Positions 48,646 to 54,675 are shown, counted from the first letter of the whole stretch. The stretch: 63,834 nucleotides of DNA, filler included, from Acidimicrobiia bacterium (GCA_041619515.1; 4 parts of 4 records of this genome joined end to end with filler, not necessarily neighbours in it); one strand, 5' to 3'. Program-made: numbers and translations. Notes: generated from the sequence alone by a model not told the origin.

Positions 48646-50712
48646 ATGAAGGCCGAATACGCCGACCTCGAACTCGGACTGCATCGAAGGGACGCCGAGA
48701 ACTACGGGGTCGAACTCAGGTTCAATCGGCCGGACAGCGAGACCGACGTCCGTATTGGGCAGGATCAGCCGACCTCAGTGAGCCTGGACCTCGACGAGCT
48801 GTCGGCACTCGCTTACGATCCAGCCGCCTACGGCGAGAAACTCACTCAGGCATTGTTCGCCGATGCGGGGGTGCAGACCGGCTTTGCGCAGGCACGGGCG
48901 AGCGTCGAGTCGCTCGGGGCGGCGTTGCGGGTCCGCCTGACGATCGGCCCCAGCGCTCCCGAGCTGCATGCTGTCCGCTGGGAGACGCTGCGGGATCCAC
49001 AGGACAACAGCCTGCTCACGACCAACCAGAACATCCTGTTCTCGCGATACCTGAGCAGTCGCGACTGGCGGCCGGTGCAGCTGCGGGCACAAGCCGACCT
49101 GCGATGTCTCACCGTGATCGCCAACCCGACCGATCTCTCCGAGTACAACCTGGCGCCGGTCGACGTCGACGCAGAGTTGCAGCGGGCCGAGCGCGGTCTT
49201 GGGGATATCCCGGTGACTGCCCTGGGGAAGGGCGACACCCGGGCGTCCCTGCAAGAGCTCGTCGCTCAGTTGCAGGCCGCGGCCCACGACGTTCTCTATG
49301 TCGTGTGCCATGGCTCGATCGTGAAAGAGGAGCCGTGGCTGTGGCTGGAGGACGACCAGGGTGCCGTCGAACGCGTCTCGGGTGTGGAGCTCGTGCGGCG
49401 CCTCAACGAGCTGACCGAACGCCCCCGGCTGATCGTGCTCGCCTCCTGTGAGAGTGCCGGGGATGGATCCGGCGAGGCCCTCGCCGCACTCGGCCCGCGC
49501 CTGGCCGAGGCGGGGATCCCGGCGGTGCTGGCCATGCAGGGCAAGATCAGCATGGAAACGGTGGCGCTGTTCATGCCGGTGTTCTTCGAAGAACTGAGTC
49601 GGGACGGGCAGATCGACCGGGCACTCGCCGTGGCCCGCGGCGCCGTCCGAGATCAATCCGACTACTGGATGCCGGCGTTGTTCATGCGCCTGCGGAGCGG
49701 CCGGATATGGTACGTGCCCGGCTTTGGTTTGGCCGACGACGACGCCGACGTCAAATGGCGCAGTCTCACCCGCTTCATCGAGGACGGCATCGCCACGCCG
49801 GTTGTCGGCCCAGGGGTGGCCGAAACCCTCATCGGCAGCCGGCAGGAGCTCGCCAGACAATGGGCGGAGGAGCACGGGTTCCCGCTTGCCCGGACCGATG
49901 CGGACATCCTTCCCCAGGTGGCGCAGTACGTGGTTACCCATGAGTCCGCCGCCTTTCTACCGATCGCGGTGCGAGAGACCCTGCAAAAGAGCTTGATTGG
50001 GAGATTCAAGGCCGTGTTGCCCGCCGAGCTCCTCGAGGCTCGCAGGTGGTCATTGGAGCAGCTGTCCGAGGCGTTGGATCACGCCCTGAATGAACTGTGG
50101 GGCAAGGACGCCGACGGGCCCTATCAGCTGTTGGCCCGTCTCAAGCTCCCGATCTACATCACCACCGAGCGGTACACCGACCTGATGGCGCGAGCACTGA
50201 GGGACGCCGGAGCAGAGCCGGAACAACGGATCGCCCGGTGGAATGAACGGATTCCAATCGAAAAGGCGACCTTCGACGATACCCCGACACCCGAACGGCC
50301 CCTGGTCTACAACCTGCTCGGCCACATCAGCGTGCCCGGCTCGGTCGTGATGGCCGAGGACCACTATTTCGATTACCTGATCGGGATCACGCGCAACAAA
50401 GACCTCATTCCCAGCGCCGTGCGGGCGGCCATGAGCAGCTCAGCCTTGCTCTTCGTCGGCTTCGGGATGAATGACTGGGAGTTCCGTATCTTCTTTCGAA
50501 TCCTCATGGGCCAGGAGGGTGCCGCCATGCTGCGCGACTACAGCCACGCCACAGCCCAGATGGAGCCGGACGAAGACCGCATCGTCGACCTCGAGCGTGC
50601 CCGTGGATACCTGTCGGACTACTTCGAGGCTGAGCACATTGGGATCTTCTGGGGCAACCCGGCCGAATTCATGCGCGAGCTGTGGCAGCGGATGGAGGGC
50701 CAGGGCTCGTGA
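48646..50712 (+). CDS. CHAT (caspase-like) protease fused to a C-terminal SIR2-like domain
   Basis: RWETLRDP, LYVVCHG (His), IVLASCES (Cys), AVLAMQG, YWMPALFMR. Then TPVVGPG, PIYITT, PLVYNLLG, LLFVGFGMNDWEFR. Confidence 0.82.
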   Translation: MKAEYADLELGLHRRDAENYGVELRFNRPDSETDVRIGQDQPTSVSLDLDELSALAYDPAAYGEKLTQALFADAGVQTGFAQARASVESLGAALRVRLTIGPSAPELHAVRWETLRDPQDNSLLTTNQNILFSRYLSSRDWRPVQLRAQADLRCLTVIANPTDLSEYNLAPVDVDAELQRAERGLGDIPVTALGKGDTRASLQELVAQLQAAAHDVLYVVCHGSIVKEEPWLWLEDDQGAVERVSGVELVRRLNELTERPRLIVLASCESAGDGSGEALAALGPRLAEAGIPAVLAMQGKISMETVALFMPVFFEELSRDGQIDRALAVARGAVRDQSDYWMPALFMRLRSGRIWYVPGFGLADDDADVKWRSLTRFIEDGIATPVVGPGVAETLIGSRQELARQWAEEHGFPLARTDADILPQVAQYVVTHESAAFLPIAVRETLQKSLIGRFKAVLPAELLEARRWSLEQLSEALDHALNELWGKDADGPYQLLARLKLPIYITTERYTDLMARALRDAGAEPEQRIARWNERIPIEKATFDDTPTPERPLVYNLLGHISVPGSVVMAEDHYFDYLIGITRNKDLIPSAVRAAMSSSALLFVGFGMNDWEFRIFFRILMGQEGAAMLRDYSHATAQMEPDEDRIVDLERARGYLSDYFEAEHIGIFWGNPAEFMRELWQRMEGQGS

Positions 50713-50748
50713 CGGTGAGGCGATCTCGCCGGCGCCCGGCGAGGTGAC

Positions 50749-53700: not shown

Positions 53701-54675
53701 GACGGCCGGTGGCTGGCGATCGGTGCGGAAAGCGTCGTCACGCTTTGGGATCTCGACGACGCCAACCCGACGCCGACCTCCCTCCCCGGCCATGCCGGAC
53801 AGGTCCGGGAGTTGATCTTCGATGGCGACGGGCACTGGCTGGTTACCCGCGACCCGGCCGTGACCCGATTGTGGGATCTGCGAACCGGGGGAACGGCCCC
53901 CTCTCCGACGCCCTTGACGGTCGACGGCGACAGCATCCGCACCGCGGCGTTTCATCCGTCGCTCCCGCTGCTGGTGACGGGAAGCGCGTCTGGCGATGTC
54001 CGGCGCTGGGATCTGACTCCGGGTGGCCATGCTCCCGAACTGATCGGCACCGTTGAAGACTTCGTCGACGAGCTGGTCTTCAATGATCAAGGCGACACGC
54101 TGGCCGTGGTGGGGCGCAGAACCACATGGCTATGGGACTGGGACGTCGACGCCGCGATCCCGGGGGAGCTTGCGCAGCTCGCACCGGATGTGACGGCGGC
54201 TGCGTTCAGCCGCTCCGGAGCGTGGCTTGCGACCGGCACCCGAAACGGGACGCTTGACCTGTGGGACCTGTCGGCCGCAGACCCGATCGTGCGCGCAACA
54301 GACCAGGATCACGATGGGCCGGTCGGTTCCCTGGCGTTCAGTGACAGCGGGGACTGGCTGGCCGCCACGAGCGACGACGAAGGCCTCCGATTGTGGGGAG
54401 TCGACGGCGACGGCTTCGCCACCGGTCCGGTCTCGTTGCAACACCCCGATCGGGTGGAGCCGCTCGATTTCGCTTTCAGCCCCGACGAGGCGTGGATCGT
54501 CACTCTGGCCTCAGACGGCAACATCAGGCTCTGGCGGGTCTCGGTCGACGAGCTGATCAACCAGGCATGTGTGATCGTCGGCCGCAACCTGACCGCCGAG
54601 GAATCGAGCCGGTTCTTTCCCGGCGAACCGTATCGGACGACGTGTGAGGACTACCCGCCTCCCACCACCCCCTGA
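50749..54675 (+). CDS. nSTAND1-type P-loop NTPase - TM helix - WD40 beta-propeller protein
   Basis: NPYVGPRSF...YGRDRE, SPSGAGKTSL, LIFDQFEE, SMRDDF, ELAHDRL, a hydrophobic helix (LIAVLAVVSIILAGAAYLAW), about 16 WD40-like repeats, C-terminal C...GRNLT...YRTTC. Confidence 0.88.
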   Translation: MDASNRHPPNPYVGPRSFQQGERIYGRDREANELLNLIIAERIVLLHSPSGAGKTSLVHAALIPRLLSRRFDVLPVVRLNLESAAGARRSGQNRYVLSAIASLQETGSTGASSPGREPASLAEFLAERSSQGDGRFEILIFDQFEEILTLDPTDRDAKREFFSQVGEALRDTNRWALFSMRDDFVAALKPYLLPIPNRFNTTFRLDLLGPEAAALAIQQPALEAGVEFEDDAAQQLIDDLRRVQVQQPDGTLEPQPGLHVEPVQLQVVCYRLWESAATADGAITQADLARFGQVDQSLVDESLAGYYAESVSQAIAGTEISERAVREWFDRHLITELGVRGTVLRGPDRSEGLDNTVIQRLVDSHLVRGDSRGGATWFELAHDRLIGPVRASNRVWFKANLSLVQEQAGKWDATGRPESLLLRKDDLRAAEEWAGSYDGELLAVEEDYLSAGRRLAARERRASIRNRLIAVLAVVSIILAGAAYLAWQEAKDQELLAQAGRSDALAQLSKSLVDSSPSLSMLLAIENLDSTAAVFGTRSASAEEALRAGLSSPRGIALPGHEGPVDRLALSPAEDWLATAGPEQTRALLWDISDSTADPIVLDHEGTVTALVFGPGGRRLATGSADTQVRIWDVAQPAQVQILDHGRAVRAVALTEDWIASAGTGTFHLWRPAGGNGAPVEHELELPETSGVTESVTLSPDGTWLAAGFDNRVIAWDLRDPFPRFVDVAVHSNLVTAVVFSSDGSWLASGSDDGGVMLAAVSDAGISSPEEMVGHTDGIRALAFGGHHLAAGSKDSTARVWDLNDVPPTKTGNPRVLTHPDWVNALAFAPNSEWLLTGSGDGAARTWRLADPVADAGSSIENAVGTLVLEDGFQLRGHEQAVLAVAAGERWLATSSDDGFVRLFELAEADEVTWLLADPMVDPIVVPGPGASTFAAADGVLAGGGGSGPARLWSWTGDSMIPVSGPSLRDGAPGEGVGTIALSRDGRWLAIGAESVVTLWDLDDANPTPTSLPGHAGQVRELIFDGDGHWLVTRDPAVTRLWDLRTGGTAPSPTPLTVDGDSIRTAAFHPSLPLLVTGSASGDVRRWDLTPGGHAPELIGTVEDFVDELVFNDQGDTLAVVGRRTTWLWDWDVDAAIPGELAQLAPDVTAAAFSRSGAWLATGTRNGTLDLWDLSAADPIVRATDQDHDGPVGSLAFSDSGDWLAATSDDEGLRLWGVDGDGFATGPVSLQHPDRVEPLDFAFSPDEAWIVTLASDGNIRLWRVSVDELINQACVIVGRNLTAEESSRFFPGEPYRTTCEDYPPPTTP

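Follow-up and report, generated by a model that had tools for sequence, protein, structure and literature searches.

A conserved bacterial gene pair in which an eroded SIR2 domain is predicted to dock a CHAT protease on a transmembrane NLR-like receptor

Introduction

According to the accessible text of the literature compared here, characterised bacterial NLR-like defences detect phage proteins intracellularly and have their effector in the same chain. Here we analyse an NLR-like gene pair at positions 48646-54675 of a 63,834-nucleotide (nt) stretch of joined contigs (the window) from an Acidimicrobiia bacterium (GCA_041619515.1). Gene 1 encodes a CHAT protease fused to a catalytically eroded SIR2-fold domain, and gene 2 an effector-less nSTAND1 ATPase followed by one transmembrane (TM) helix and a WD40 sensor. 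This gene pair is real, widespread and uncharacterised. We propose that its pseudo-SIR2 domain serves as the adaptor that docks the protease on the receptor.

Several described systems share parts of this layout; the comparisons that follow refer to the accessible text of each source. EAD-coupled nSTAND1 systems resemble the pair in having an nSTAND1, a variable C-terminal sensor and effectors (caspase, TIR) supplied in trans by a neighbouring gene; they are also enriched in multicellular bacteria and are known by prediction only (Kaur et al., eLife 2021, PMC8195603; eLife 2020, PMC7159879). They are linked by a homotypic EAD present on both proteins, whereas here the STAND has no N-terminal domain, the predicted contact is a heterotypic one through the SIR2 fold, and the receptor spans the membrane. 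BASS NLR pairs (Dyrka et al., bioRxiv 10.1101/2020.01.06.895854) likewise place a collinear effector gene (CHAT or TIR) upstream of an effector-less NLR and couple through the effector C-terminus. Their coupling element is an amyloid motif of ~25 amino acids (aa), whereas here it would be a folded domain of 330 aa; no amyloid motif matching the BASS type was found before the NTPase here, nor were all-in-one fusions.

The fold of the SIR2 NADase effectors ThsA, DSR2, Avs5, KomC and Sir2-HerA is common to gene 1 (structural similarity Z ~21), whose catalytic motifs are lost, whose partner is a membrane nSTAND1, and which has neither a SLOG domain nor a TIR signalling gene beside it. Sir2-HerA and, judging from PDB titles, KomBC pair a stand-alone SIR2 with a second protein, an arrangement shared by the intact relatives described below. 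In SAVED-CHAT/PCaspase (Steens et al., bioRxiv 10.1101/2023.06.23.546230) and in Csx29 (Craspase), as proposed here, CHAT is activated through a fused regulatory domain. The likeness to SAVED-CHAT/PCaspase extends to a second clan-CD protease as candidate substrate, gingipain-like (C25) here and PCaspase there, but the trigger there is a CRISPR-made cyclic oligoadenylate and here would be a membrane STAND. Finally, the Apaf-1 apoptosome and its bacterial orthologues (PMC12803255) also combine a STAND and a WD40 sensor acting on a caspase-like protease. Those proteins are cytoplasmic, with CARD recruitment or a fused protease, whereas here there is a TM helix and a separate protease, docked by the pseudo-SIR2 domain according to our model.

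Results

The window consists of contigs C61, C63, C64 and C97 of one genome (G000; 3.1 Mb, 66% G+C) joined by N spacers, and the pair sits on C64 (window 37050-55140). The two genes are co-oriented, 36 nt apart and in the same frame, separated by two in-frame TGA stops (Table 1). Since a single contig from another sequencing run covers 46400-55029 with nine substitutions and no gaps, and since the stops are untouched by any variant listed from four runs in three studies (one of the runs may be the source sample), the split into two genes is real; a frameshift or read-through fusion of the genes is ruled out. Within the two genes, 19 of 23 listed substitutions are synonymous. The architecture described in a first-pass annotation of this DNA, comprising a CHG/SC dyad and SIR2 fold in gene 1 and an NPYVG start, one TM helix and about 16 WD40 repeats in gene 2, is confirmed by Pfam, by hydropathy and by a motif count, which gives 16 WD-type repeats.

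Scoring of 8000 candidates gave 2612 homologues of gene 1, the best of them at 60-63%, and the SIR2 part has 1,922 representatives at 50% identity (E <= 1e-30). A scan of species genomes gave 446 relatives, and the locus analysis covers the best 80 loci among them. These come mostly from Chloroflexota and also from Actinomycetota, Acidobacteriota, Planctomycetota, Myxococcota and others; cultured carriers include Oscillochloris trichoides and Cellulomonas sp. The 80 loci hold 84 gene-1 copies, of which 76 are evaluable (at least 300 nt of downstream DNA) and 8 end at contig edges. An nSTAND1 starts within 300 nt downstream of 65 of the 76, within 1.2 kb of 69 and anywhere downstream of 71. A reciprocal search in metagenomes from the STAND gave 33 loci, 18 close and 15 distant: a SIR2-like gene precedes 15 of 16 close STANDs (2 of the 18 lack upstream DNA), and most of the distant 15 lack one. 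The split receptor/effector pair suggested earlier is thus conserved across genomes in both directions. A full-length copy occurs in 1 of 40 close relatives, and the SIR2 part in 6 of 301 genomes of the same class and 17 of 301 Chloroflexota genomes. The Atlas clusters closest to RimP are mostly from Actinomycetota, a lead by which horizontal transfer from Chloroflexota into this genome is suggested. Neither gene has a close paralogue in this genome. Tandem arrays of pairs, and one effector with two receptors, occur among loci L008, L018, L037, L039, L066 and L080.

No credible natural SIR2-STAND fusion was found; the search among long proteins, which gave one long match among 3602 candidates, is weak evidence of absence. 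Protein P0123 was rejected as such a fusion, as it runs out of frame inside its SIR2 part (a frameshift artefact), and P0186 and P0221 look indel- or frameshift-derived.

The pair could not be placed among the EAD-coupled, BASS-linked, Apaf-1-like, Thoeris, Avs or Sir2-HerA systems. Pfam finds no EAD domain on either gene, and STAND homology begins within 300 nt of the gene-1 stop in the 65 of 76 copies counted above, so there is no shared adaptor at the STAND N-terminus. There is no N-terminal effector fusion as in Avs or single-chain NLRs, and no Avs model matches. PADLOC matches to ThsA cover profile positions 93-202 only (E 4e-7), Pfam detects neither SLOG nor TIR in the two genes, and where Sir2-HerA has a HerA ATPase this pair has an nSTAND1. 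NCBIfam gives no match to the pair, and PADLOC matches are weak and at the level of domains only. The first-pass annotation knew of no experimental characterisation of this architecture, and our comparison with PADLOC models and the literature likewise produced no match. Neither the pair nor an adaptor with a SIR2 fold turned up in a literature search that did not extend to the supplements of PMC12803255, PMC8195603 and PMC7159879, which may list such operons. The accessible text of PMC10907252 and of bioRxiv 2024.09.18.613514 and 2021.06.07.447441 does not describe the pair.

The SIR2 domain has kept its fold and lost its catalytic motifs. In the AlphaFold 2 (AF2) model of gene 1 (predicted local distance difference test, pLDDT, 90.5; predicted TM-score, pTM, 0.89), residues 360-688 match ThsA, DSR2 and KomC, all matches of the model lying at Z 20-23; against SeThsA (7uxt) Z is 21.6, with a root mean square deviation (rmsd) of 3.2 over 269 aa. 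The GAGxS (as defined in the accessible text of PMC12931631), TTNxD and HG motifs are all eroded, with Glu at the catalytic Asn position and Leu at the His position of this copy. The His column contains no His in 83 locus sequences (Phe in 78, Leu in 3, Tyr in 2) or in those 137 of the best 150 representatives that are of the CHAT type; Asn persists in 37/83 and 81/137, respectively. By the accessible text of the reports, ThsA loses both binding and cleavage of NAD+ when mutated to N112A or H152A (PMC7272460), and Avs5 activity needs Asn110, Asp112 and either His or Asn at the HG site (PMC12931631). Because the catalytic motifs are eroded here and the equivalent residues are needed in ThsA and Avs5, an NADase role is very unlikely, and by its sequence the domain is very likely a pseudo-enzyme. 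The first-pass annotation had read it as an NADase effector, a reading that is not borne out; it overlooked the lost motifs along with the domain's predicted adaptor role, the swappable CHAT and the co-inherited third protease described below.

Might the fold still bind or convert NAD+, ADP-ribose or a cyclic nucleotide variant, gating the protease allosterically or acting as a second NADase effector? Five residues (Gly388, Gly559, Glu571, Asp572 and Gly605) are invariant in gene-1 relatives, the pTM suggests a fixed CHAT-SIR2 packing, the accessible text on Avs5 indicates that its HG motif tolerates NG (PMC12931631), and the 37/83 sequences that keep the Asn would fit as well. We nonetheless consider this quite improbable, given the Glu and Leu of this copy, the bulky Phe, Tyr or Leu at the relatives' His site, the highly variable TTNxD and the inactivity of the two ThsA mutants.

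The relatives of the pair point to an adaptor. In 11 loci the gene before the STAND is a stand-alone SIR2 of ~300 aa with intact motifs, directly upstream of an effector-less nSTAND1, and elsewhere an eroded SIR2 is fused variously to CHAT, TIR, EAD1, phosphoesterase or another STAND. The motifs are kept in the stand-alone relatives and mostly lost in the CHAT, TIR and EAD1 fusions. Across these sequences, the constant unit is a SIR2-like domain plus nSTAND1, with CHAT as a swappable cargo. In a quick tree of 52 rows, in which the script misread the His labels of L157 and L095_2542, the sequences that bear His fall on the side of the midpoint root and also within one supported clade nested elsewhere in the tree. 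We infer that an ancestral NADase, activated in trans, was repeatedly kept as a docking module after new cargo had been gained. Two further arrangements were seen among the relatives: a tandem, intact SIR2-SIR2 protein (L169:7591-9402), and a STAND-HEAT-pseudo-SIR2 gene before a second STAND (L095:2542-6824), a possible relay.

A model of the complex supports binding. With STAND residues 1-400, gene 1 residues 355-688 and our own alignments, three runs scored 0.69, 0.70 and 0.69, and the best of three controls 0.00; the score mark is reached by 116 of 157 solved pairs and 2 of 215 mismatched pairs, a calibration that is rough here, where own alignments were used. No less than 96% of contacts recur between runs, the partner pLDDT is 81-82, and the predicted contacts centre on STAND residues 36-42 and SIR2 residues 590-598 and 623-628. 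Across 66 paired rows, STAND36-SIR594 ranks third in covariation among ~266,000 inter-chain column pairs, being Asp-Arg in 31/66 and Asn-Ala in 7/66 (this copy included). Column pair 170-586, beside the interface, ranks second, and other top pairs fall off the interface. Among STANDs that could be scored at positions 39-40, 15 of 16 SIR2-linked sequences (query included) have a large hydrophobic residue followed by a small one, against 0 of 8 unlinked sequences; the pattern failed to capture a further 6 linked and 7 unlinked rows. The SIR2 domain is thus predicted to dock on STAND helix 28-43, and recruitment of the protease in trans, as the first reading had it, gains support as a modelled STAND-partner interaction.

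The CHAT cargo of this copy keeps its fold and catalytic dyad. Residues 3-357 of the gene 1 model match SAVED-CHAT and Csx29 structurally (SAVED-CHAT 8tl0: Z 22.9, rmsd 2.1 over 189 aa; Csx29 8eey: Z 21.2), and His222 and Cys268 are each invariant in 83/83 gene-1 relatives. With the CHAT fold and dyad intact, proteolytic activity is predicted. Pfam finds no SAVED domain in gene 1, and the PADLOC SAVED_CHAT match is confined to residues 197-341, the CHAT part. Several CHAT-SIR2 proteins (L041, L051, L094, L099, L161) bear an acidic C-terminal tail with terminal aromatic residues, which is absent from this copy.

In gene 2 the NTPase begins at residue 9 (NPYVG), with only eight residues before it; no solved nSTAND1 relative was found by sequence. 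Residues G51, G53, K54, S56, D142, E145 and E146 and the winged-helix motif are invariant in 66 STAND sequences, as established STAND biology has it for an active, oligomerising switch. This invariance counts against an alternative that we regard as improbable, in which the STAND is a securin-like inhibitor or guard that holds CHAT-SIR2 inactive at the membrane until ligand or receptor damage frees it, or until CHAT cuts the receptor. Such a guard would accord with the predicted complex, formed with an unliganded STAND monomer, with the separase/Csx29-like N-terminal part of CHAT, which is partner-regulated, and with the single effector genes that accompany two receptors in some genomes.

The TM helix of gene 2 is preceded by seven Lys or Arg residues and followed by two. 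Such a helix occurs in 67 of 68 partner STANDs (>=560 aa), and Lys/Arg before it outnumber those after in 66. Cys1274 and Cys1299 are the only cysteines after the helix, and a C-terminal Cys pair is present in 33 of 42 complete WD40 receptors. Positive charges flank the inner side of membrane helices (the positive-inside rule), and disulfides are expected outside the cytoplasm. Because of the charge bias and the Cys pair, the WD40 sensor likely lies outside the cell membrane, in keeping with the possibly extracytoplasmic propeller proposed at first. The ecto-domains of partner STANDs vary and include WD40, TPR, PPC, FHA, Pro/Thr stalks and SH3-like parts. One close STAND (L100:943-4656) lacks both TM helix and SIR2 partner and is joined in one protein to regions resembling trypsin and a KAP NTPase (labels by inspection).

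Clustering of the neighbours of gene-1 loci revealed a third gene, encoding a C25-like (gingipain-like) protease. It lies within 10 kb in 31/80 loci, and in 14/28 loci with full flanks. His271 and Cys328 are invariant in 25/25 of these proteins, the best structural matches of the model are the gingipains Kgp and RgpB (E 2e-8), and the protein start has no evident signal peptide on inspection of the sequence. All 11 sampled Chloroflexota genomes with CHAT-pseudo-SIR2 carry the C25-like gene, versus 18/301 overall and 0/6 of those whose SIR2s are all distant and intact. Among 301 genomes of the class, G000 alone has the gene, on contig C127. One protein, P0142, is a CHAT-SIR2-C25 triple fusion in a single chain. 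Since C64 ends in the 5' half of a lipoprotein gene and C127 begins with the likely 3' half of one, of the kind adjoining the four closest loci, the two contigs are likely adjacent; the window lipoprotein matches its relatives weakly (E 0.009). Read depth roughly doubles and loose ends differ at window 54985-55140, suggesting a second, unassembled lipoprotein copy, which was not found in the assembly.

In 20/25 C25-like proteins a leader of ~50 aa is followed by a loop, modelled with low confidence, that contains an aromatic/hydrophobic-small-hydrophobic motif, and [DS][FY][GS][LIA] opens the tail domain in all seven recognised by script; both are candidate cleavage sites. On C127 (L081), an LCAT/PGAP1-like lipase gene (507-1805, -) is divergent from the C25-like gene (1974-3389, +), which is followed by a secreted protein with prealbumin-like repeats (3606-4912, +); patatin lipases lie near C25 genes in L002 and L065. 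The lipases are candidate end effectors. Two uncharacterised proteins follow the C25 gene, of ~260 aa (13 loci) and ~110 aa (210 homologues); their loci are L010:8190-9343, L011:18247-19378, L023:8653-9793, L062:18022-19216 and L079:8862-9984. The 110-aa domain, a possible further adaptor to which neither Pfam nor the Atlas gives an assignment, recurs as the tail of C25 proteins and of a glycosyl hydrolase 108 (L020:5149-6102). A search of G000 did not find it, which rules it out as a universal substrate. Chloroflexota also have fusions of C25-like domains with a papain-family (C1) protease or with long domains of other kinds, in which S-F/D-F-G-type linkers are repeated (L174:4765-7695, L175:4334-7132, L177:1085-6445, L178:4243-7122).

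The nusA/rimP genes in the window are not its true neighbours, as the contigs were concatenated. An Amidase_2 plus peptidoglycan-binding protein (47634-48548, +) is co-oriented and lies 97 nt upstream of gene 1; a dienelactone-hydrolase-like gene (46653-47513, -) adjoins that for an 898-aa multi-TM protein (43879-46575, -), in which a lipase-like HSQG motif lies C-terminally and Pfam finds nothing significant. All three are ruled out as parts of the system, their homologues occurring in no fetched locus. An intergenic hairpin is ruled out as a regulatory element, since the spacer folds no better than shuffles (z 0.05), and a promoter/terminator scan gave nothing above chance.

Table 1. Features of the gene pair and of the window that contains it. 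Positions are counted from the first letter of the window.
Feature	Position	Strand	Details
Gene 1	48646..50712	+	688 aa; CHAT (caspase/separase-like) protease fused to catalytically eroded SIR2-fold domain
CHAT domain	48829..49662	+	aa 62-339; Pfam E 7.5e-32
CHAT catalytic dyad	49309-49311; 49447-49449	+	His222 (CHG); Cys268 (SC)
Pseudo-SIR2 domain	49723..50709	+	aa ~360-688; Pfam SIR2_2 at aa 505-635, E 6.6e-17
GPGVA in place of GAGxS	49807-49821	+	relatives' consensus GPGLx
TTERY in place of TTNxD	50161-50175	+	aligned to ThsA TTNYD
LLG in place of HG motif	50314-50322	+	NLLG aligned to ThsA KMHG
Predicted STAND-binding surface of pseudo-SIR2	50398..50538	+	aa 585-598, 623-631; also 544-546
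Intergenic spacer	50713..50748	+	36 nt; contains second in-frame TGA
Gene 2	50749..54675	+	1308 aa; effector-less nSTAND1, single TM helix, 16 WD40 repeats, C-terminal Cys pair
nSTAND1 NTPase module	50779..51906	+	Pfam PF20703 aa 11-386, E 1.5e-32
Predicted docking helix of STAND	50830..50877	+	aa 28-43; Ile39-Ala40-Glu41-Arg42
Walker A	50890-50916	+	SPSGAGKTS
Walker B region	51160-51186	+	ILIFDQFEE
TM helix	52150..52206	+	aa 468-486; Arg-rich stretch before; hydropathy peak 2.61
WD40 array and Cys cap	52414..54645	+	WD40 aa ~556-1265; Cys1274/Cys1299
Lipoprotein gene, 5' part	54838..55140	+	cut by end of contig C64
N spacers	18666-18765, 36950-37049, 55141-55240		open reading frames reaching spacers truncated

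Discussion

We assign a probability of about 0.55 to the reading that this pair is a two-gene transmembrane NLR-like switch, in which an eroded SIR2 domain docks an intact-dyad CHAT on the receptor's cytoplasmic ATPase, with the WD40 sensor of that receptor facing outward. By analogy with STAND and NLR biology, a ligand meeting the sensor would cluster the cytoplasmic ATPases, to which the pseudo-SIR2 domain would tether CHAT through the predicted interface. Clustering may then activate CHAT by proximity, as known CHAT biology suggests. The later steps are suggested by genomic context: activated CHAT would likely cleave and activate the C25-like protease, as SAVED-CHAT activates PCaspase, perhaps at [FY]-G-[LIV] linkers, and the end could be dormancy or death of the cell, or defence. 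Support is stronger for the adaptor step than for the output. No gasdermin gene recurs among the neighbours, and a PF04598 search of this genome was empty, its control likewise matching nothing.

Several observations weigh against this reading. First, the arrangement has exceptions: five of the 76 evaluable gene-1 copies have no co-oriented STAND downstream. Fusion and motif loss are not strictly coupled, since the CHAT-SIR2 protein of G037 keeps TTNFD and HLHG, and the stand-alone SIR2 of L104 is eroded. The tree needs five changes of His label, at least two of them forced, and its backbone is not resolved. Second, conservation on the SIR2 side of the interface is 0.54 against an average of 0.59, the covariation was drawn from the same alignments as the model and from rows that are kin, the complex was modelled with the SIR2 part of gene 1 and without CHAT, and the model may have profited from Avs5-like structures that hold SIR2 and STAND in a single chain. 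Third, half of the loci with full flanks have no C25 gene nearby, seven sampled genomes have C25 without a SIR2 match, kin among the genomes are not independent, and the join of C64 to C127 is itself inferred. Finally, the neighbours of the pair are mostly housekeeping genes; 9 of 137 scanned neighbours match PADLOC at 1e-10, mostly generic enzymes, a figure that stands without a background set, and the loci are not evidently in defence islands. With such neighbourhoods and no PADLOC model naming the pair, the defence role first suggested for it is unsupported so far.

These housekeeping neighbourhoods also speak for an alternative, a receptor for general signalling across the membrane that would respond to the envelope, to neighbours or to nutrients, and whose protease output would remodel physiology or development with no killing. 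The lipoprotein-like Pro/Thr stalks, PPC, FHA and SH3-like parts of the ecto-domains and the many filamentous Chloroflexota among the hosts would suit such a receptor. We think it unlikely all the same, because the swappable cargoes (CHAT, TIR, EAD1, phosphoesterase) are typical conflict effectors, the distribution is patchy, the sensors are variable, pairs occur in tandem, and lipases recur beside the C25 gene.

A bolder form of the switch reading can be held tentatively, at somewhat less than even odds. Here an immune NADase would have been turned into a non-enzymatic adaptor in a death-receptor-like path: a membrane NLR would sense an extracellular cue and recruit an initiator CHAT, which would activate a gingipain-like executioner in the cytoplasm, whose substrates would be cut at [FY]-G linkers. 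Intact NADases, TIR, EAD1 and other cargoes would all fit this one docking surface, which would form a general plug-in platform across several phyla. Animals have likewise made TIR domains into adaptors.

If the proposed switch is correct, it may be relevant in several ways. First, it would extend NLR logic across the membrane. Second, a pseudo-enzyme derived from an immune NADase would constitute a new class of adaptor, and the residue-level predictions given here make this transition from enzyme to adaptor directly testable. Finally, cytoplasmic C25-like proteases would gain a role in a regulated initiator-executioner cascade.

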